DNA of 20,229 nucleotides, taken from a virus (lineage: Duplodnaviria > Heunggongvirae > Uroviricota > Caudoviricetes). Both the position numbers and the translations under genes were made by a program. The DNA is taken from the IMG/VR virus record IMGVR_UViG_2609459769_000010; one strand, 5' to 3'. The stretch's first letter is position 1, and each line of letters opens with the position of its first letter. The notes under the pieces were generated by a model. That model saw only the letters and a list, made by a program, of their open reading frames with translations, did no database searches and was not told the DNA's origin. This document shows, piece after piece, positions 1-14,885 of this stretch.

Positions 1-930
1 ATGAAGATATCTCTTGTAGTTCCTGTCTTCAATGAAGAAGAAGCGATACCAATTTTTTATAAAACGGTACGTGAATTCGAAGAATTGAAGTCATATGAAG
101 TGGAAATTGTTTTCATAAATGACGGCAGCAAAGACGCTACGGAGTCAATTATTAATGCTCTGGCTGTTTCAGATCCTCTAGTTGTTCCGCTGTCATTTAC
201 ACGCAACTTTGGTAAAGAACCAGCATTGTTTGCAGGGTTAGACCATGCAACTGGCGATGCCGTGATTCCAATTGATGTTGACCTGCAAGACCCGATTGAG
301 GTTATTCCTCATCTTATTGAAAAGTGGCAGGCAGGTGCTGATATGGTACTTGCTAAGCGCTCTGACCGTTCTACAGATGGAAGACTGAAGCGCAAGACTG
401 CTGAGTGGTTCTATAAACTTCACAACAAAATAAGCAACCCAAAAATTGAGGAGAACGTCGGAGATTTCCGACTAATGTCTCGAGGAGTTGTGGAAAACAT
501 TAAATTATTACCAGAACGCAACCTGTTCATGAAAGGAGTATTAAGCTGGGTTGGTGGTCGTACAGATGTTGTTGAATATGCTCGCGCTGAGCGCGTTGCA
601 GGAACAACTAAATTTAATGGGTGGAAATTATGGAACCTGGCTCTGGAGGGTATCACTAGCTTCTCTACATTTCCTCTGCGTATGTGGACTTACATCGGTC
701 TTTTTGTTGCCGGTTTGGCATTCATTTATGGTGCATGGATGATTTTAGATAAGCTGATATTTGGAAATGATGTTCCTGGGTATCCATCAATTATTGTGTC
801 TATACTATTTTTAGGTGGTGTGCAGCTTATAGGGATCGGTGTGCTTGGAGAATACATAGGAAGAATATATATTGAGTCAAAAAACAGACCAAGGTATCTT
901 TTAAAGGAAAATGACTGTGAAAAAAAGTAA
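1..930 (+). CDS. gtrB: Bactoprenol glucosyltransferase GtrB (GT2 family, O-antigen glucosylation/seroconversion)
   Basis: 309-aa ORF starting at window position 1. Translation recalled as near-identical to E. coli K-12 YfdH/GtrB and Shigella phage GtrB ([17 protein letters not shown]..., DGSKD, C-terminal TM helices). gtrA would lie just upstream, outside the window. Confidence 0.93.
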
Positions 931-2686
931 TTTAATTATAATATCAGCATTAGCTATAGTATATTGCTTGCCAATTATTCTTGGCACATCATATTATTAT
1001 GATGATCTTTTCCGAGCCTATTCAGGCTATAGCTCATGGAGTTCAGATGGAAGACCGTTTGCTAATACCTTTTATCAAATACTGACCTTTGGTCAAATGA
1101 TGCCTGATACGTTTCCACTTGCACTTATAGTATCAATTTTTATTTTTGCATATATCGGGAGCAAGCTTGGTAGTTTCTATGGTAAGATTAATTCATACAC
1201 TTACTGTTTTGCCTATACAACGATTATAATGTCACCATTATTTATATCTAATTTATTATTTAGATATGACTCTGCATTTATGATGCTTGCTATATCGGCC
1301 TGCATTGTTCCATACGTAGTTACTTTAGATAAAAAAATAAATATAGCTTTCGGCACTTTGGCTGTTATTTTTTCATTTGGACTTTATCAAGCAGCAGTTA
1401 GTATTTTTATTGCTTTTGCTGGTATAGAGCTATTTATAAATAGTTGTTTTCATGATGCAAAAAAAACCATTAAAAACTGCCTCATTAGAATAATGCAACT
1501 AGCTGTGGCTTATGTTATTTACTCAAAAATCATACTTGGATTTTTTGTAATTAACGACTATTTCAAAGAATTTAACAAACCTATATCACTAAGTGCAGAT
1601 GGTATATCGCGGTTAATGGCAAACATATCATCTTCTATGCATAACATAATATTGATGTTGAATTCTGGATTCTTAATAGCTGTAACTCCAATAATATGTT
1701 ACTCCCTTTTTTGTATTGTAAAGCACTCTATAACCAACAAGAAACCATATTCTATAATTGGTTTTATTCTGGCATTGGTTGCTTTATCTATTGCAGTTCC
1801 GGGTATAGCGATATTTGGTGAGAAGCCAATTTTCTATCCAAGAATTTATATTGGTGTTGGTGCATGTCTTTTCTTCATATGCTTCATACCAGTTATGTTG
1901 AATGGGAATAAGAAGATAACTATTGCTGTGCAATTTATTTTCATTTTTTATCTATTTGGCATGATTAACGCAACAAGCAATGCGGTTAGATCTGACGTTG
2001 AGTTTCAAAAAGCAACGTCTCAGAGAATTATAAACATAATTGATAGCAGTTACCTTTCAATTAATCATAAAGTTGTTATTCTTGGTCAACTTCGCCAGTC
2101 TCCATTATCATACATCAACTCATTATCATATCCATTGATTAACATATTGTCGCCGCAGCACTTTATCAATGGTTATGACGGTGGTCGATTCGTACTTATG
2201 CATGAGGGGCTTGACAATATTGAATATCCGGATATTCAAGAGCAAAGCAAATACAGAGATGCAATTAAAAATTCAAAACCAATATTCTCAAACAATATTT
2301 TTTCAATATATAACATTAATTCAACTACGGTCATATCTTTTGAGAATACATTATATGACGAAGCGAATAATAAGATGATACCATATACATTTAAGAGTAA
2401 CATGGTAAGTAATGCTCATTACGGTGATAAGTATTTCTATGCTTGCATTTCAAATACAGTATCCCCTACTCTTAAAAGAAACGAGTGGTACTATCTACTT
2501 ATTCACAATAAAGATGGTTCAGTCATTAACAGAAATTTTTTCGCTCCTTATTCAATGCATAATGACGAAAGTACATGCGTTAACACTCAATGGAAGGAAC
2601 CTGTTTCGTTAGAAGATATAAACTCAATTGAGTTTGGAATTTACAACATAGAAACAATGCAAAGGCGGTTAGATCTAGGCTCATAA
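911..2686 (+). CDS. GtrC-type serotype-specific O-antigen glycosyltransferase, polytopic membrane protein with long hydrophilic C-terminal domain
   Basis: 591-aa ORF overlapping the gtrB stop by 20 nt, with AAGGAAA RBS. N-terminal ~370 aa are very hydrophobic (multiple TM helices); C-terminal ~220 aa are hydrophilic. Strongly AT-rich compared with the rest of the window. Sits where the third gtr gene is found in P22/SfX-type conversion modules. Confidence 0.6.
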
Positions 2687-2690
2687 TTTT

Positions 2691-2714
2691 AAGGCCTCTG
2701 TTGAGGCCTTTTTA
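2691..2714 (+). terminator. Rho-independent terminator of the gtr operon
   Basis: AAGGCCTC-TGTT-GAGGCCTT hairpin followed by TTTT, 5 nt after the gtrC stop. Confidence 0.6.
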
Positions 2715-2893
2715 CGTAATATTTAAATTCCTATACATTCCGTTACCATACCACGCTTGATCTGGATGCCATGGTTTCAGCGCATATGAATTCGTCTATA
2801 TTTATTAAAAATTTCTCTGGATATGCGGTAGATAGTGCTATTTATTCACATAATAAAATAAGAATAGATTTACTCGTATATAACTATGTTTGA

Positions 2894-2931
2894 TAGAATT
2901 AAGAAAACGGCTCCCTGTAGTGGAAGCCGTT
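2894..2931 (-). terminator. Possible terminator downstream of tailspike
   Basis: AACGGCT / AGCCGTT 7-bp stem (12-nt loop) followed on the - strand by TTTCTTAATTCT. About 80 nt past the tailspike stop. Confidence 0.3.
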
Positions 2932-3007
2932 ATAGTGCTGCAGTTTAAAGACAGATCAACCAATCCTTAACTGATCGGCATTGCCGGATGACCGGGCTTT
3001 TACATTT

Positions 3008-5212
3008 TTAGAATGCTTTCAATGTAGAGGCTTCTGAACCAGCACAGGTAAGAACTATCTTGTAGTACCCGGTTTTAGCCCCCCCTGAAACTCCTGACCA
3101 GTCAAAATTTAACTGCAATATAGCTCCGTTTTCATTTGGCGCACCGTAATTAACACTAGGTGCCCCTGGAGTAGAGATATCGAACATTGGCATATTTGCC
3201 GCCACTGAGTTTGCATTATACGAGTTGGTATTTCTGGCATCATTTCCTTGAGATGCAGTGATTACAGGCCATTCACCACCCAGAGCACTCTTTTGTACCA
3301 CCTCTATCGTTGCAGGTCCATTTCTCAACAACACTCCCTCGTAATACACATTTCCATGCGTACCACCGGTTCCATGTATTTGTATAGTGGCGAATCCGCA
3401 ATCAGCATAGTTGACTGATGGATCGAACGTCTGATGATACATATCAGATGGCAATGGCATAACAACTGCTGATAGTGTTGCTGGGGATGGCATTGATGTT
3501 CCTGTCCCAGTATTCATTGCAGGAACCCTGAGCTTTATTGATTCGGCTTTTCCACGAATGTTGCTGTATCCATCACCATGTGTATTGATCATATGAACAG
3601 GCCTAACAATTACTCCTTGAATAAACGCATTGCCATCAGCTATTTTTGCGAATGTAATTGTTTTCCATCCTCGACCAATCAATTGTCCGGCGTGCTTTAC
3701 CATTCCTGTGCTATTGCCGCCTCTATTACGAAGTGGCCATCCATATTGTTTTCCTTGATAACTTAGATTGCTACTAACTGGATAATTCAAATCGTAGTAT
3801 GGTGGCTTCGTTCCTGTGTAATTCTCAACTGGATGCTGAACCAGCATGCTTAAAACAACATCATCCCAACTGCCAATAACATCTATCTCAGCAGCTTCTG
3901 CATCAAGATAAAAGCTGTACGACATTACTGCGCTACCAGTTATCGGGAACTGTCCAGTTATTCGTTGTTGAGTATATGCAGCTCGATCAAAGACAATATT
4001 GAAATTGTTAGTAGGCAAGGCCATGCCAAAATGATCAGACATCATAGTGGGCCACATCATGATTTCTGATGATATTGGTTTGTACGATGGAGAAAGACCG
4101 CCAGCCATTAACATTGATGCGATTGCCTCACCCATTCGCTGATACCCCAATGAGTTAAAGTGGGTGCCGTCGCTTTGCACTACACCCTGTGGCATGTTGA
4201 ACTGAAGCTCGCCAAGGTTAATATGTGCGCAGTTATATAGTGTGGCTAAGTTTTTGACCTGAAATGCATATGACTGTTGGTAGTTAGCCAAGTTAAAATT
4301 GTACATACTAAAACTACCTGACGCAGTTTGACAAACAAGAACACCCATCCCCCAATCAATAAAGCGACGTATCAATTTTTCCATATACTCAAGGTACTCA
4401 TTGATGTCGCCCTCATTTGCATCGTTAATCGCATACATTAAAATTGCCAAGTCGCAATTAGGGTTTGTTTGCCAGTCAGGATTCTCATAGGCATTTTTTG
4501 CCGTGAAGCCTGAAATTGCCCTTACAGTTATTGATGTTGGCGCCCCTGATTGTTCCTCAAGATATGATCCAAGACGAACAGGATACGTAACTGTGGCATG
4601 AGTTGCGTTATCAGGGCTTCCTTCAACAATATCTGTTGATGAAATATCATATCCAGCAGTTATTGAATCTCCCTGACAAAGAATTTTTAATGGACTTCTT
4701 GATTTAATCAGGTAGTTTACATTAAGTAACATCCTTATATTTCTTGAACCATAGTTAGCAGAATCATTAGCAATATTACCTTTCGCATTATCATCAAGGG
4801 CTTCCTGAATCGTCTCTCCACTAACAGTGCCAATCATTCCTGCCCCAGTGCTTGATGTTAGTCTTTGTTCTAACTGATCGGGATCATACTTCAGCACATT
4901 TGGAAAATAGAACTGCTGCACACCGTACGCATCATAAACAGCCATAGAATGGCCTTGCACAGTTACGAATTTGGCAATCTGTCCGTTATATACCGGATAT
5001 CCGGCAGCATTTATAACGATTGGTTGTGACACTTGAACATGAGTGCCGTCTTCTCGTTCCAGATATACTGGAATCTGGTTTTCAGGATTTACCGGATCAG
5101 TGTCAATTTTACCGATATAAATTTTTCCATTGGCTACGGCTTTAAAAGAACGAGCCATAGTGAAGAGTTGCGAAGGCATCGATACGATCACATTGGCTGT
5201 AATGTCTGTCAT
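3008..5212 (-). CDS. Tailspike protein: P22 gp9-like N-terminal head-binding domain fused to SGNH/GDSL esterase domain and C-terminal beta-rich domain
   Basis: 734-aa ORF with GGAG RBS. First ~115 aa ([41 protein letters not shown]...VLKYDPDQ) match the P22 tailspike head-binding domain as recalled. Downstream carries SGNH hydrolase blocks: GDSIT (aa 181-185), INDAN (GxND-like), DGTHF (DxxH). Confidence 0.85.
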
Positions 5213-10602: not shown

Positions 10603-12024
10603 TACTCAATCCTTATCTGAGCGCCAGACAGAGTGACAGGTGACTTCGTGATAACGCGCAATTTGAAGCCAACATTTTTCCTGATGCGCCCTACCCGCTT
10701 CCACAAAACGCGTTTGTCGTAAACGAACGGTTCATTCTGCTCAATCATCTGCTCACGCCCGTAATTGATGCCGTCAGTGGTTGCAGAGAGAAAAAGGCGG
10801 TCAGCATACTGCGCAACTCCAGTTGAAGATTCAACCTCAAGGTCGAACACCCGGGCGTTATCCGCTTTGAACAACGGAGTAAACAGCAGGTGTTCCTGTT
10901 GAAGCCCATACTGGCTGCTGATATCGAACTGCAATTTCCCGGTCACCGATTCCAGCTTATCGCCGCACGTTATTTGATTGCCTTCGTAAATGAAGTCGAT
11001 AGCGCGGTACACATCGTCATACAGGCCTGTTTTCAACACACACCATTGCGGACCATTGGCGCTTGAAGATGCGTCGTATACGAGGACATGGCGCGGAAGA
11101 TGGATAATCAGCAACTCATGCGCATCAAACCGCAACGATTCCATCACACCATCAGCCAGTTCATCAGCAGTGTAGGAGCGGAGGATTTTCTCAATGCTCG
11201 CGCTGGCGATTGGTGACACCTGACCGGAGCCGATGATGTATACAGATGGCGCACCCGTTGCCGGATTGCTGATGAACGCATACGAATCAGCAAACGGCGT
11301 TTTGCAGTAAGTCCCGGCGATGCCTTTTTGCACCATCAGTGATGGCTGTGCGACATACAAAGCAGCACCAACGGTGGTTGCGCCAGTCAGGGAGAAATAT
11401 TCAATAGTCGATGAACCAAAGCAGACGATGAAGTCTCGCCATGTCCCGATACCGATGATGCCGTCCGGCTGAGACTCGGCACGATATTGTGCGCTGTAAC
11501 GGTCAGGATGCGATTCGTCTTCAAGGTCAGTGATAAACCATGAATCAGTGCCGTCTTTTGACCACGCATAACGCCCACGTAAGCGCGTAATGTCACGAAC
11601 CGAACCTAACTCATACTGAGTGAATCCGCTGTCTGTAGGCCAGTTTGAGACTGTTTTAACCGTGCCATCATAGCGATACTCGACCAGTTGACCATTAACA
11701 CCTACCGCCTGTGATGTCCGACCATGCGCCATTGATACACGACCACTTCCGGCAACATCACCGACTTCACTTTCTCCTTTGTACAGCTTGCCGCCACACA
11801 CGCGATAAACAGCACTCTGCGCCATGTTGTACTCAACTCCGCGCGATACGCCGTTCACATCAGAACGTTTGGCAATGCCCGGGAATGAGCGAAGATAGTC
11901 TGTAAACACCAACAAGGCGCTCTGCGAACGCCCTGTTATTTGCTGCGGCTACCACTAATCCCTCAGGTGAATCAGGGTGTCGAATCTCTTCTTTTTCCTG
12001 GTATTTCTTACGACGTTTTGTCAT
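10602..12024 (-). pseudogene. P22 gp10-like tail hub/head-completion gene, reading frame interrupted (two frames)
   Basis: The 437-aa gp10-like frame (10602..11915) has no ATG; an in-frame TAG lies at 11949-11951. A strong AGGAG RBS plus ATG at 12024 opens a second frame (MTKRRKKYQEKEEIRHPDSPEGL...) that stops at 11860, overlapping the first. Span from 12024 to the gp10-like stop is ~473 codons, close to the P22 gp10 length (~472 aa, recalled). Frameshifted gene, sequencing indel or deletion fusion are all possible. Confidence 0.5.
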
Positions 12025-12058
12025 AATTACTCCTGTGGATTGATCCAGTCTTTCTACA

Positions 12059-12337
12059 TCAGGCCTCAAAACTGTTGCAGCAGTCTTGAGGCTTTTCTTT
12101 TGTCAGCACCATGGCTACTTTCTTTGCCAGCTCCGCTAATTCCTCGTCTTCAACACCCCACTCCAGCACAGCCAGAAGCATGGCCATCTTTGGGATAAAG
12201 CTGTCTTTCCATCGCGAAATTTGCGATTCATTAATCCCTAACGCGTCGGCAACCTTTCGCTGACCACGTACAGCAATTCGATTCAGGATGTTGCTTGTAA
12301 TTGCATTCGCTTTCTTGCGAGTACTTGTAAGTTGCAT
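12059..12337 (-). CDS. cII: Transcriptional activator CII
   Basis: 92-aa product (MQLTSTRKK...SQISRWK...MLLAVLEWGV) aligns with lambda CII (QISRWK, MLLAVLEWGV). The 5' leader ...TTATCTAAGGAAATACTTACATATG is essentially the lambda cII leader. Confidence 0.85.
   Translation of the reverse strand: MQLTSTRKKANAITSNILNRIAVRGQRKVADALGINESQISRWKDSFIPKMAMLLAVLEWGVEDEELAELAKKVAMVLTKEKPQDCCNSFEA
12291..12330 (+). promoter_or_regulatory. Candidate CII-dependent promoter (pRE-like) TTGC-N6-TTGC motifs
   Basis: On the + strand inside the 5' end of cII: TTGCTTGTAATTGC (perfect TTGC-N6-TTGC) and TTGCGAGTACTTGT. Lambda pRE sits in the same place and orientation. Confidence 0.3.
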
Positions 12338-12416
12338 ATGTAAGTATTTCCTTAGATAACAATTGATTGAATGTATGCAAATAAATGCATACACCATAGG
12401 TGTGGTTTAACTTGAT

Positions 12417-12446
12417 GCCCTTTTTCAGGGCTGGGATGTGTAAGAG
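12417..12446 (-). promoter_or_regulatory. nutR (boxA + boxB) N-utilisation site
   Basis: - strand reads GCTCTTACACATCCCA-GCCCTGAAAAAGGGC: boxA-like GCTCTTACA and a boxB hairpin identical to lambda nutR boxB. Lies between cro and cII. Confidence 0.8.
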
Positions 12447-12456
12447 CTGGAATGTC

Positions 12457-12672
12457 TTAAGCGGCTTTGTGTTCCGGCGGGAACACGTCATCAAGACTGA
12501 CTTTTGCGCCTAACTTGTTTAGGCACTCAACAAGAGCACGGCATGTTTTAAGGTCTGGGAAGCGACGACCAGATTCCCAATGTCCGATAGCTCCCTGTGT
12601 GCATCCAACTGCCTTAGCAAGTGTTGTTTGAGAGATATTCAGTGACTCTCGATATTTTCGTAGGTTGCTCAT
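12457..12672 (-). CDS. cro: Cro-like repressor (HTH, XRE family)
   Basis: 71-aa product MSNLRKYRESLNISQTTLAKAVGCTQGAIGHWESGRRFP..., with GGAGGG RBS. Divergent from cI, first gene of the pR transcript. Its recognition-helix motif TQG-IGHW..G.R.P is shared with the cI N-terminal domain. Confidence 0.75.
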   Translation of the reverse strand: MSNLRKYRESLNISQTTLAKAVGCTQGAIGHWESGRRFPDLKTCRALVECLNKLGAKVSLDDVFPPEHKAA

Positions 12673-12698
12673 ATGCCCTCCATAGTAACCATGAAGCA

Positions 12699-12727
12699 AT
12701 AATACGATATGTACTTTTAGAATGCAA
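12699..12727 (-). promoter_or_regulatory. pR promoter with embedded operator (oR1-like)
   Basis: - strand reads TTGCAT - 17 nt (TCTAAAAGTACATATCG) - TATTAT. The spacer and -10 contain AAAGTACATATCGTATTAT, almost the same as the element in pL. Confidence 0.55.
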
Positions 12728-12783
12728 ACAAAAAATACATCTTGTGCATGGATGATTTTAGTACAGAGCGTAATAATAAGGGT

Positions 12784-13443
12784 ATGAAAATGAAATGGTA
12801 TGAACTGGCTAGATCCAGAATGAAAGAGCTCGGCATAACTCAAGAGAAGTTAGCTGAAGAGCTTGGTATGACGCAGGGTGGAATTGGTCACTGGTTGCGC
12901 GGATCTCGTCATCCATCTCTTGACGAGATTGGTGTGGTGTTTAAATACCTTGGTATTGATAACGTCTCATTCAACCACGACGGTACATTTTCACCTGTTG
13001 GCGAATACTCATCTGCCCCCGTTAAAAAACAATATGAGTACCCTGTTTTTTCTCATGTTCAGGCCGGGATGTTCTCGCCTGAGCTTAGAACCTTTACCAA
13101 AGGTGATGCGGAGAGATGGGTCAGCACAACCAAAAAAGCCAGTGATTGTGCGTTCTGGCTTGAAGTTGAAGGTAATTCCATGACCGCGCCAACAGGATCC
13201 AAGCCAAGCTTTCCTGACGGGATGTTAATTCTCGTTGACCCTGAGCAGGCTGTTGAGCCAGGTGATTTCTGCATAGCCAGACTTGGTGGTGACGAGTTTA
13301 CCTTCAAGAAACTGATCAGGGATAGCGGTCAGGTGTTCCTACAGCCACTAAACCCGCAATATCCAATGATTCCATGCAATGATAGCTGTTTCGTAGTAGG
13401 GAAAGTTATCGCCAGCCAGTGGCCTGAAGAGACATTTAGTTAA
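12784..13443 (+). CDS. cI: CI repressor (S24 peptidase/LexA-like C-terminal domain; distinct N-terminal HTH domain)
   Basis: C-terminal ~130 aa ([115 protein letters not shown]...) nearly identical to lambda CI as recalled. N-terminal ~90 aa HTH domain is unlike lambda CI. Start chosen at ATG 12784 (MKMKWYEL...); the upstream TTG/ATG at 12742/12748 are alternatives. Confidence 0.85.
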
Positions 13444-13475
13444 CAGCCTCACAACTCTAAAACACACAACAATAA

Positions 13476-13505
13476 CCCGACCTTAGCGTCGGGTTTTCTT
13501 TTTCC
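13476..13505 (+). terminator. Rho-independent terminator after cI
   Basis: CCCGAC-CTTAGC-GTCGGG hairpin followed by TTTTCTTTTT. Confidence 0.55.
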
Positions 13506-13568
13506 AAAATATAAACCTATTAAATACAAAGCGTTATAAAAAACTAATTATATTTAGAACATTTTGTA

Positions 13569-13597
13569 TTGACTCGATAAAGTACAAATCGTACTAT
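13569..13597 (+). promoter_or_regulatory. pL promoter with embedded operator (oL1-like)
   Basis: TTGACT - 17 nt (CGATAAAGTACAAATCG) - TACTAT. Contains the inverted repeat AGTAC-AAATC-GTACT and matches the pR element (consensus AAGTACAWATCGTAYTAT). Confidence 0.55.
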
Positions 13598-13636
13598 TTA
13601 GCCATCAGCAGGACGTACTAACCACCATGAAGGTGA

Positions 13637-13667
13637 TGCTCTTAAAAATTTAGCCCTGAAGAAGGGC
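13637..13667 (+). promoter_or_regulatory. nutL (boxA + boxB)
   Basis: TGCTCTTAAAAATTTA-GCCCTGAAGAAGGGC: boxA-like plus the exact lambda nutL boxB hairpin, upstream of N. Confidence 0.85.
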
Positions 13668-13777
13668 AGCATTCAAAGCAGAAGGCTTTGAGTAGCGCGA
13701 AATGCAGCTGCAAGACAGCAACCGTGGAGATAAGCATCACGGCGCGTTACTCAAAGCTAACTGACAGGAGAATCCAG

Positions 13778-14104
13778 ATGGATGCACAAACACGCCGCCG
13801 CGAACGTCGCGCAGAGAAACAGGCTCAATGGAAAGCAGCAAATCCCCTGTTGGTTGGGGTAAGCGCAAAACCAGTTAACCGCCCTATTCTCTCGCTGAAT
13901 CGCAAACCGAAATCACGAGTAGAAAGCGCACTGAATCCGATAGACCTTACGGTGCTGGCTGAATACCACGAACAGATTGAAAGCAACCTGCAACGTATTG
14001 AGCGCAAGAATCAGCGCACATGGTACAGCAAGCCACGCAGTGAAATGGGGGTGACTTGTGTTGGTCGCCAGAAAATGAAATTAGGCAGCAAACCACTTAT
14101 TTGA
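13778..14104 (+). CDS. N: Antitermination protein N
   Basis: 108-aa product MDAQTRRRERRAEKQAQWKAANPLLVGVSAKPVNRPILSLNRKPKSRVESALNPIDLTVLAEYH..., near-identical to lambda N over most of its length. AGGAG RBS. Confidence 0.9.
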   Translation: MDAQTRRRERRAEKQAQWKAANPLLVGVSAKPVNRPILSLNRKPKSRVESALNPIDLTVLAEYHEQIESNLQRIERKNQRTWYSKPRSEMGVTCVGRQKMKLGSKPLI

Positions 14105-14114
14105 GGACTGATAC

Positions 14115-14357
14115 ATGAGAGTAAAAACTATGGGCGCAAGCCCATTAAGTGGTCGTATTTTTCAAGGAACATTAAACACTGAAAAAGGAATGTGGGTAGG
14201 AAAGAGAGAAGATGTCACCGATCAGGCAGTGAGGGCAGTAGCCGAACACATGATGATAAAAGACCAGAAATATGCATACGAAACGAAGGATGGCAAATGG
14301 CTGATAATAAGTCATCAACTGGTTGATAAATTACCAGAAGAGTTTGTTGATGGTTAA
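14115..14357 (+). CDS. Hypothetical protein (80 aa), early-left cargo gene
   Basis: ORF with GAGGA RBS directly after N. AT-rich. No recognisable motif. Confidence 0.5.
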   Translation: MRVKTMGASPLSGRIFQGTLNTEKGMWVGKREDVTDQAVRAVAEHMMIKDQKYAYETKDGKWLIISHQLVDKLPEEFVDG

Positions 14358-14414
14358 ATTTGCTTTGGAATAAGCAACAGAATAAACACTGCACTGAATT
14401 ATTTGAGGTGAGAT

Positions 14415-14885
14415 ATGACAAAATCATGGAGCGTACCTTTTCCTGAATCAGAAACTGAACATGATGGAATGCCTGTTTTCTGGAGATTCCAAGCGACAGT
14501 TGAAGAAGATGGAATCAAAATATTCGCACTTCAATATATAGCTTTTCATCAGACAGAGCATTATGCATGGTTGGTTCCTGCGCATTGGATTGTTGATTTT
14601 AAACCAGCACCAAATCAGTGGTTACAGGAATGGAAACAAAGGAGAAATAGATATGCAATTAAGAAAGTAGCAAAAAAGGCAGAAAGATCTTTTGCGTTCC
14701 CGACGAAGAAACTTGCCATTGAAAGTTTATTGCGCCGGAAGAAATACCATTTGATGAGAATCAAACAAGATTTGGCTGTTGTATCAACTCTTGTTGATGG
14801 GATGAAGAATATTGATACATCAACACCAGATATTGAATATAACTTTGGACACAACCAAGAAACAGAAAATTGGGTATTTTATTAG
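14415..14885 (+). CDS. Hypothetical protein (156 aa), early-left cargo gene
   Basis: ORF with GAGGTGAGAT RBS. AT-rich, basic Lys/Arg-rich central segment. Followed by a strong terminator. No recognisable motif. Confidence 0.55.
   Translation: MTKSWSVPFPESETEHDGMPVFWRFQATVEEDGIKIFALQYIAFHQTEHYAWLVPAHWIVDFKPAPNQWLQEWKQRRNRYAIKKVAKKAERSFAFPTKKLAIESLLRRKKYHLMRIKQDLAVVSTLVDGMKNIDTSTPDIEYNFGHNQETENWVFY

Follow-up and report, generated by a model that had tools for sequence, protein, structure and literature searches.

Phages such as the imm434 and imm21 hybrids carry a foreign cassette of cI DNA-binding sequence, cro, and operators within lambda-type flanks, and in 434 the recognition helices of repressor and Cro begin alike and both proteins read the same operators. 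For the Shiga toxin (Stx) phage VT2-Sakai (Sp5), Fattah et al., as summarised in PMC10742460, reported that VT2-Sa CI has high homology to lambda CI in its C-terminal part and low homology in its N-terminal part, together with cross-immunity. The Sakai operators OL1 to OL3 and OR1 to OR3 are listed, after Fattah et al. 2000, in PMC4587872, and a classification of Stx-phage CI proteins places CI of this type in clade I, 61% identical to lambda CI (PMC8951638); according to PMC9803871, a structure of the complex of VT2-Sakai CI with DNA has yet to be published. Here, we analysed the immunity region of IMG/VR record IMGVR_UViG_2609459769_000010, a stretch of 20,229 nt (hereafter the window) that represents an Sf6/P22-like prophage. 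Positions 12457–13597 contain cro (minus strand), the right operator (OR), cI (plus strand), a terminator, and the left operator (OL) with pL, an orientation that is the reverse of the usual lambda map. This locus is very probably the switch between lysis and lysogeny in a lambdoid (Sf6/P22-like) prophage of VT2-Sakai (Sp5) immunity specificity; the immunity type is an already described one and is not new.

Mosaic Structure of the Immunity Region

Borders between lambda-like and VT2-Sakai-like segments were taken from BLAST comparisons of positions 11800–14500 with both phages. Lambda homology ended sharply at the edges of two non-lambda segments (Table 1), and VT2-Sakai matched 12457–13443 at 92.5% and 13506–13615 at 79%. 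The OR intergenic DNA is 84.5% identical to VT2-Sakai, compared with 98.1% of nucleotides for cro. Recombination joints are located in the linker between the two cI domains (about 13033), at the pL transcript start, and at the cro stop, and these positions suggest that only the specificity determinants were exchanged. By homology, the N-terminal helix-turn-helix (HTH) domain of cI, Cro, OR, and OL are foreign, in a scaffold that is lambda-like except for the cII coding sequence.

The original prediction, whose quoted sequences were all found where it had placed them, had described a non-lambda specificity within a lambda regulatory scaffold, and the mosaic borders and domain identities bear this out. 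It had also called N, the boxB elements of nutL and nutR, and the cII leader essentially lambda. In agreement with this, N is 91.6% identical in amino acids to lambda N, both boxB elements are identical to those of lambda (nutR by alignment to lambda 38225–38365), and the leader segment is closely matched (Table 1). Its extension of this backbone to cII holds for the leader but not for the protein, which is only 47.8% identical to lambda CII.

Table 1. Features and homology segments of the immunity region and its flanks (positions in the window).
Feature	Position	Strand	Identity to lambda	Details
cII, 92 aa	12059–12337	−		Pfam Phage_CII, E = 2e-44
Putative pRE CII box	12315–12328	+		TTGCGAGTACTTGT (TTGC-N6-TTGT); regex scan; cII nucleotides 10–23
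Lambda-like segment: nutR, tR1 region, cII leader to cII ATG	12335–12450		97.4%	
nutR	12417–12448	−		boxB GCCCTGAAAAAGGGC 12417–12431; boxA AGCTCTTA 12441–12448
Non-lambda segment: cro, OR, cI N-terminal domain	12451–13032			
cro, 71 aa	12457–12672	−		Pfam HTH_3, E = 1.4e-12
Right operator and pR	12699–12775			
pR	12699–12727	−		−35 TTGCAT (12722–12727), 17-bp spacer, −10 TATTAT (12699–12704); consensus scan
OR1	12701–12715			AGTACATATCGTATT (minus-strand reading); 0 mismatches; matrix rank 2; homologous to annotated Stx1-phage operator
OR2	12734–12748			AATACATCTTGTGCA; 2 mismatches; matrix rank 8; weakest site
OR3	12760–12774			AGTACAGAGCGTAAT; 1 mismatch; matrix rank 4; identical to Sakai site
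cI, 217 aa	12790–13443	+		Alternative in-frame ATG at 12784
Lambda-like segment: cI C-terminal domain	13033–13437		93.6% nt, 97.1% aa	
Lambda-like segment: terminator	13466–13501		88.9%	After rexB in lambda
Intrinsic terminator after cI	13474–13495	+		Terminator scan
Non-lambda segment: OL and pL	13502–13602			
Left operator and pL	13523–13597			
OL3	13523–13537			AATACAAAGCGTTAT; matrix rank 5; homologous sites in 2B8, VT2-Sakai, and AP005153
OL2	13556–13570			AGAACATTTTGTATT; matrix rank 3; abuts/overlaps pL −35; homologous annotated site
pL	13569–13597	+		TTGACT, 17-bp spacer, TACTAT; consensus scan
OL1	13581–13595			AGTACAAATCGTACT; perfect palindrome; 0 mismatches; matrix rank 1
Lambda-like segment: pL transcript start through nutL	13603–13690		95.5%	
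nutL	13637–13667	+		boxA TGCTCTTA 13637–13644; boxB GCCCTGAAGAAGGGC 13653–13667
Lambda-like segment: N	13752–14079		93.9% nt	
N antiterminator, 108 aa	13778–14104	+		Pfam N36 arginine-rich peptide, E = 1.5e-26

Repressor and Cro Domains

The cI protein consists of an N-terminal domain of the VT2-Sakai type (residues 1–81; recognition helix T28–G38) and a C-terminal domain of the lambda type (residues 82–217). Pfam HTH_3 matched residues 9–56 (E = 8.3e-11), Peptidase_S24 was also recognized (E = 4.4e-28), and the protein matched the lambda repressor structure PDB 3bdn (E = 1e-95). The C-terminal domain had been predicted to be lambda-like, as its amino acid identity to lambda confirms (Table 1). 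Cleavage and catalytic residues are preserved, with A92-G93, S130, and K173 aligning with A111-G112, S149, and K192 of lambda. With this Ala-Gly cleavage site and Ser/Lys dyad, cI is, as judged from its domains, a lambdoid CI repressor with an HTH and a LexA/S24 self-cleaving domain. The N-terminal domain is 95.1% identical in amino acids to that of VT2-Sakai and about 20% identical to that of lambda. The claim that it differs from the lambda domain therefore stands, but the two are not unrelated; in a HMMER alignment their helices 2 and 3 correspond, and on this basis the domain is a distant homologue of its lambda counterpart. Compared with the Stx-phage cI, the N-terminal domain shows three differences, D45S, E46D, and V59I, all outside helices 2 and 3, and the recognition helix is identical. 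Over residues 1–81, cI of two isolated phages, phi458 and vB_EcoP-720R6, has exactly the same sequence (100% identity).

The public VT2-Sakai record AP000363 carries a TAG (2585–2587) at cI codon 29, within the recognition helix, and because of this stop it annotates a truncated cI of 170 aa. Codon 29 encodes Gln in the window cI and in the Stx1 phage.

Cro is 98.6% identical in amino acids to VT2-Sakai Cro, and its recognition helix, TQGAIGHWESG, is identical to that of Stx-phage Cro. The protein is of the all-helical HTH_3 type, with the P22 C2 N-terminal domain and 28tn as PDB relatives. In Pfam, it matched HTH_3, HTH_31, and HTH_19, with no match to a lambda-type Cro family; a forced global alignment to lambda Cro paired 60 residues, 18 of them identical, and gives no evidence of a relationship. 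A recognition-helix motif shared by cI and Cro had been proposed, and 11 of 17 residues are common to the two motifs (cI residues 26–42; Cro residues 23–39, GCTQGAIGHWESGRRFP). The helices start with TQGGIGHW in cI and TQGAIGHW in Cro, sharing seven of eight residues, whereas the domains overall are 35% identical.

Six Candidate Operators at the Early Promoters

The pL element AAAGTACAAATCGTACTAT (13579–13597) and the pR element AAAAGTACATATCGTATTAT (reverse complement of 12699–12718) agree at 17 of 19 positions, as expected from the repeated element noted earlier at both promoters. Its placement strictly between the −35 and −10 hexamers did not hold, since at both pR and pL the palindrome lies across the promoter spacer and runs 4 bp into the −10 hexamer. 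The third copy, reported to lie toward cI, is present as OR3, which overlaps the predicted −10 of PRM. Three further sites, OR2, OL2, and OL3, had been overlooked, and the motif search proposed at that time brings the total in OR and OL to six 15-bp palindromic sites of the form ARTACR-N3-YGTAYT rather than three.

Allowing at most one mismatch, ARTACRNNNYGTAYT matched the 20,229 bases four times, always in OR or OL. With up to two mismatches, it matched 13 times, six of them in OR/OL, and the other seven correspond to the chance expectation of 6.85. To avoid circularity, a symmetric matrix was built solely from the six published Sakai/PST1 operators (PMC4587872, Table S5). OL1, OR1, OL2, OR3, and OL3 were its five best matches among 20,213 positions, and the two highest scores, 19.8 and 17.7, exceeded the best score of all 200 shuffles. 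With arms of only 5–6 bp, the operators escaped an inverted-repeat finder run with seed 6.

The record of the Stx1-converting phage AP005153 annotates a promoter homologous to pR and, at homologous positions, six putative operators, three each in OR and OL. Our six sites correspond one-to-one with these and with the operators of PMC4587872 Table S5; the predicted repeats thus coincide with sites annotated or published as operators for homologous Stx phages. OR2 lies where an OR2 has also been annotated and published for these phages. Substitutions among the window, VT2-Sakai, the Stx1 phage, and 2B8 are confined to central bases or degenerate positions, and the ARTAC/GTAYT half-sites persist in spite of the divergence of the OR intergenic DNA from VT2-Sakai. 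Compared with their Sakai counterparts, OR1, OR2, OL1, OL2, and OL3 have one to three base changes each. Centre-to-centre spacings are 33 bp (OR1-OR2), 26 bp (OR2-OR3), 25 bp (OL1-OL2), and 33 bp (OL2-OL3), compared with 32/26 (OR) and 25/33 (OL) in Stx phages.

Relatives of the Immunity Region

The cro-cI core is 92.5–93.9% identical in nucleotides in VT2-Sakai, AP005153, Stx2 phage II, 1717, YYZ-2008, Nil2, 2851, the PST1 phages of PA strains, and the non-Stx lambdoid phage 2B8. This group shares with the window its Cro (98.6%), its cI N-terminal domain (95–96% aa), a lambda-like C-terminal domain, and six homologous operators with the same half-sites and the same pR/pL architecture. The cI N-terminal domain, Cro, and operators at homologous positions all point to the VT2-Sakai immunity type; the VT2-Sakai/Sp5 type has the same operator sequences and not a different set. 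In contrast, the N, nut, cII, and cI-OL DNA of this group is not lambda-like. VT2-Sakai N is only 37% identical to the window N, and VT2-Sakai has 1.5 kb with extra open reading frames between cI and OL, where the window has a terminator followed directly by OL.

Closer matches come from P22-like phages (Lederbergvirus). In Dewey, Louie, vB_EcoP-720R6, and vB_EcoP-683R2, all 1,251 bp of the region are 99% identical (97% in phi458), lambda-like flanks included, and vB_EcoP-720R6 is 99.2% identical from the cII start to nutL and 100% over 283 bp of N. The window cII gene differs from that of vB_EcoP-720R6 (no match over 12050–12334), and the Dewey-type phages are complete, whereas the prophage of the window has a deletion from cII to gp10. 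Among 5,426 complete E. coli genomes, the region was matched in 1,391, about a quarter, and nearly the whole region including its flanks in 220.

Lambda itself shares the order N-nutL-pL/OL-cI-OR/pR-cro-nutR-cII, the three-plus-three arrangement of operators, and the location of OR1 and OL1 over the early promoters. It differs in operator sequence (TATCACCGCCAGTGGTA) and in operator spacing (24/23 and 24/20 bp versus 33/26 and 25/33 bp). The window lacks rexAB, its cI N-terminal domain lacks the N-terminal arm of the lambda repressor, and its Cro does not have the lambda Cro fold. In contrast to 434, which contributes a complete cI of its own, the junction in the window lies inside the cI linker, leaving the C-terminal domain of lambda.

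A more distant likeness is seen in the cI and Cro proteins of the Salmonella P22-like phages SPN9CC and g341c, which have the same domain design with 54% identity in the N-terminal domain. Their specificity, though related, probably differs from that of the window. SPN9CC (1885–2010) has the recognition helices TKGAVSHWLNG and TRGAVCHYETG and palindromes of the ATACA-N-TGTAT type in OR. These likenesses suggest that several related specificities form a larger family in which the lambda-like C-terminal domain is shared.

Two other Stx-phage immunity types were considered and rejected. The repressor of the O104:H4 Stx2 phage (strain BAA2326) was a candidate because the OR1 of that phage ends in GCGTAATG, but both the repressor protein and the operators of the phage (ATAACTGTGCGTAATG and others) are of a different type. 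The Phi24B/933W type has two OL sites, and its CI is about 19% identical to Sp5 CI.

Weighing the Alternatives

That the repeated 15-mers could be promoter-associated or chance palindromes rather than repressor sites is conceivable at first sight, as they are A+T-rich and overlap −10 regions, and the OR2 score falls below the mean best match of shuffled sequence. The matrix, however, was derived from the published sites of another phage, and five of the six sites were its best matches in 20 kb. The four closest motif matches were likewise confined to OR/OL, OR3, OL2, and OL3 lie away from the pR and pL −10 hexamers, and the half-sites are conserved among diverged relatives, leaving such an origin extremely improbable. 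A new heteroimmune specificity, set apart from VT2-Sakai by the three cI substitutions and the operator differences, would fit the lower identity of the OR intergenic DNA relative to cro and the base changes in five of the operators. Yet the recognition helices of both cI and Cro are those of the Stx-phage proteins, and the operator changes are central or degenerate with the half-site ARTAC/GTAYT kept, so we consider it very unlikely. Somewhat less remote, though still improbable, is that cI, cro, and the operators are inert relics decaying in a defective prophage with no working switch. The joint at 11896/11897 has removed everything from the small open reading frame after cII to about codon 37 of gp10, and the stop codon in the VT2-Sakai record shows that such inactivation occurs. 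Decay is nevertheless hard to reconcile with full-length cI, cro, cII, and N that contain no stops, with the complete identity of cI residues 1–81 to phi458 and vB_EcoP-720R6, with 99% identity of the whole region to isolated phages, and with six operators, both promoters, and catalytic residues that are all intact.

The reading we prefer, a switch of the VT2-Sakai type, builds on the anatomy, homologies, site enrichment, and site conservation observed in the sequence, and several points weigh against it. The prophage has lost its replication, lysis, and head genes, so that the switch no longer governs a viable phage. The matrix score of OR2 is not significant alone, and the OR1-OR2 and OL2-OL3 spacings are 33 bp compared with 20–24 bp in lambda, so that lambda-style cooperativity between adjacent pairs cannot simply be assumed. 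Furthermore, the published sites are sequence predictions combined with genetic immunity data, and the literature searched yielded neither footprinting nor gel-shift data for a repressor of this type on its cognate operators.

How the Switch May Operate

For repressor binding and cleavage, the order in which sites are occupied, and activation of PRM, the picture given here is drawn by analogy with lambda, 434, and P22. Dimers of cI would bind the six ARTACR-N3-YGTAYT operators through the HTH_3 N-terminal domain, and occupancy of OR1 and OL1, which lie over the spacer and −10, would occlude pR and pL. In the lambda repressor, E34 and D38 are the acidic helix-2 positions that contact sigma-70; both positions are acidic here as well (E and E). 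The OR2 centre precedes the predicted PRM start, and likewise the cI ATG at 12784, by about 43 bp, compared with 42 bp in lambda. This placement and the retained acidic residues make it plausible that cI bound at OR2 activates PRM as in lambda.

Binding at OR3, over the PRM −10, would then allow cI to repress its own synthesis, while Cro, with its near-identical recognition helix, could read the same operators and shut off PRM. The lambda-type C-terminal domain would be expected to supply dimerisation, cooperativity, and RecA-stimulated self-cleavage, and with A92-G93, Ser130, and Lys173 intact, SOS induction should proceed as in lambda.

Flanking Genes and Prophage Context

K65E is the only substitution relative to lambda N in the first 86 residues of N, and the C-terminal residues (about 22) diverge. 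The boxA elements of nutL (TGCTCTTA) and nutR (AGCTCTTA) have one mismatch each compared with lambda boxA (CGCTCTTA). With an N protein that carries the arginine-rich boxB-binding peptide and with both nut sites, the elements of lambda N/nut antitermination are present, and antitermination is expected to be lambda-like. A further mosaic joint lies inside N, where lambda nucleotide homology stops at 14079; positions 14052–14117 are 95% identical to the 3′ end of VT2-Sakai N and the region downstream.

A CII-family protein and a TTGC-N6-TTGC/T box at the cII start conform to the lambda CII/pRE arrangement. The position of the box, which we take to be equal to that of lambda pRE, is followed by a TAAGTAT identical to lambda. 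A second TTGC-N6-TTGY box occurs inside the cII 5′ end (12291–12304, plus strand).

The rexA and rexB genes are absent (13444–13522); cI is followed after 30 bp by the terminator and then directly by OL3. The terminator segment aligns with lambda 35799–35834, the terminator 3′ of rexB. No Rfam family reached its gathering threshold anywhere in the window.

At 11896/11897, gp10 is joined to the small open reading frame downstream of cII. Matches from the left stop at 11897 and those from the right begin at 11896. The gp10 gene (Phage_stabilise) is without its first 36 or so codons, its profile match beginning at position 37 of 469, and the internal deletion entails the loss of the replication, nin, Q, lysis, terminase, and head genes. 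None of the complete E. coli genomes spanned this junction, and an exact 28-mer across it had no match in the GTDB representative genomes; the joint may reflect either a genuine deletion or an error of assembly.

At the prophage end, O-antigen modification genes span 1–2686 and include a gtrB-like family-2 glycosyltransferase (1–930) and a GtrII-type glucosyltransferase (911–2686). Beside them, within 1–5212, lies the gene for a tailspike of 734 aa, in which a P22-type head-binding domain is combined with a GDSL/SGNH esterase domain instead of the usual endoglycosidase. Ejection proteins, a tail needle, and gp10 are also encoded in the window.

Biological Implications

We regard it as a tentative and rather unlikely prospect that a deleted, non-inducible Sf6-like prophage still makes a working Sakai-type repressor. 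If this were true, the host would be immune to Stx phages of the Sp5/VT2-Sakai type, or the repressor would contribute to silencing such a phage resident in the same host. Mixed oligomers with lambda-type repressors might also form because the C-terminal domain is 97% lambda, and the 33-bp OR1-OR2 and OL2-OL3 spacings would imply a scheme of cooperative pairing unlike that of lambda.

As a discovery, the locus carries little weight, since the type has been sequenced, its operators were predicted in 2000–2003, and it is annotated in GenBank and classed in surveys of Stx-phage CI. It is a clean textbook case of modular exchange in lambdoid phages. Non-Stx P22-like prophages share this immunity type with clinically important Stx2 phages, which could affect the establishment or induction of Stx phages in such hosts.

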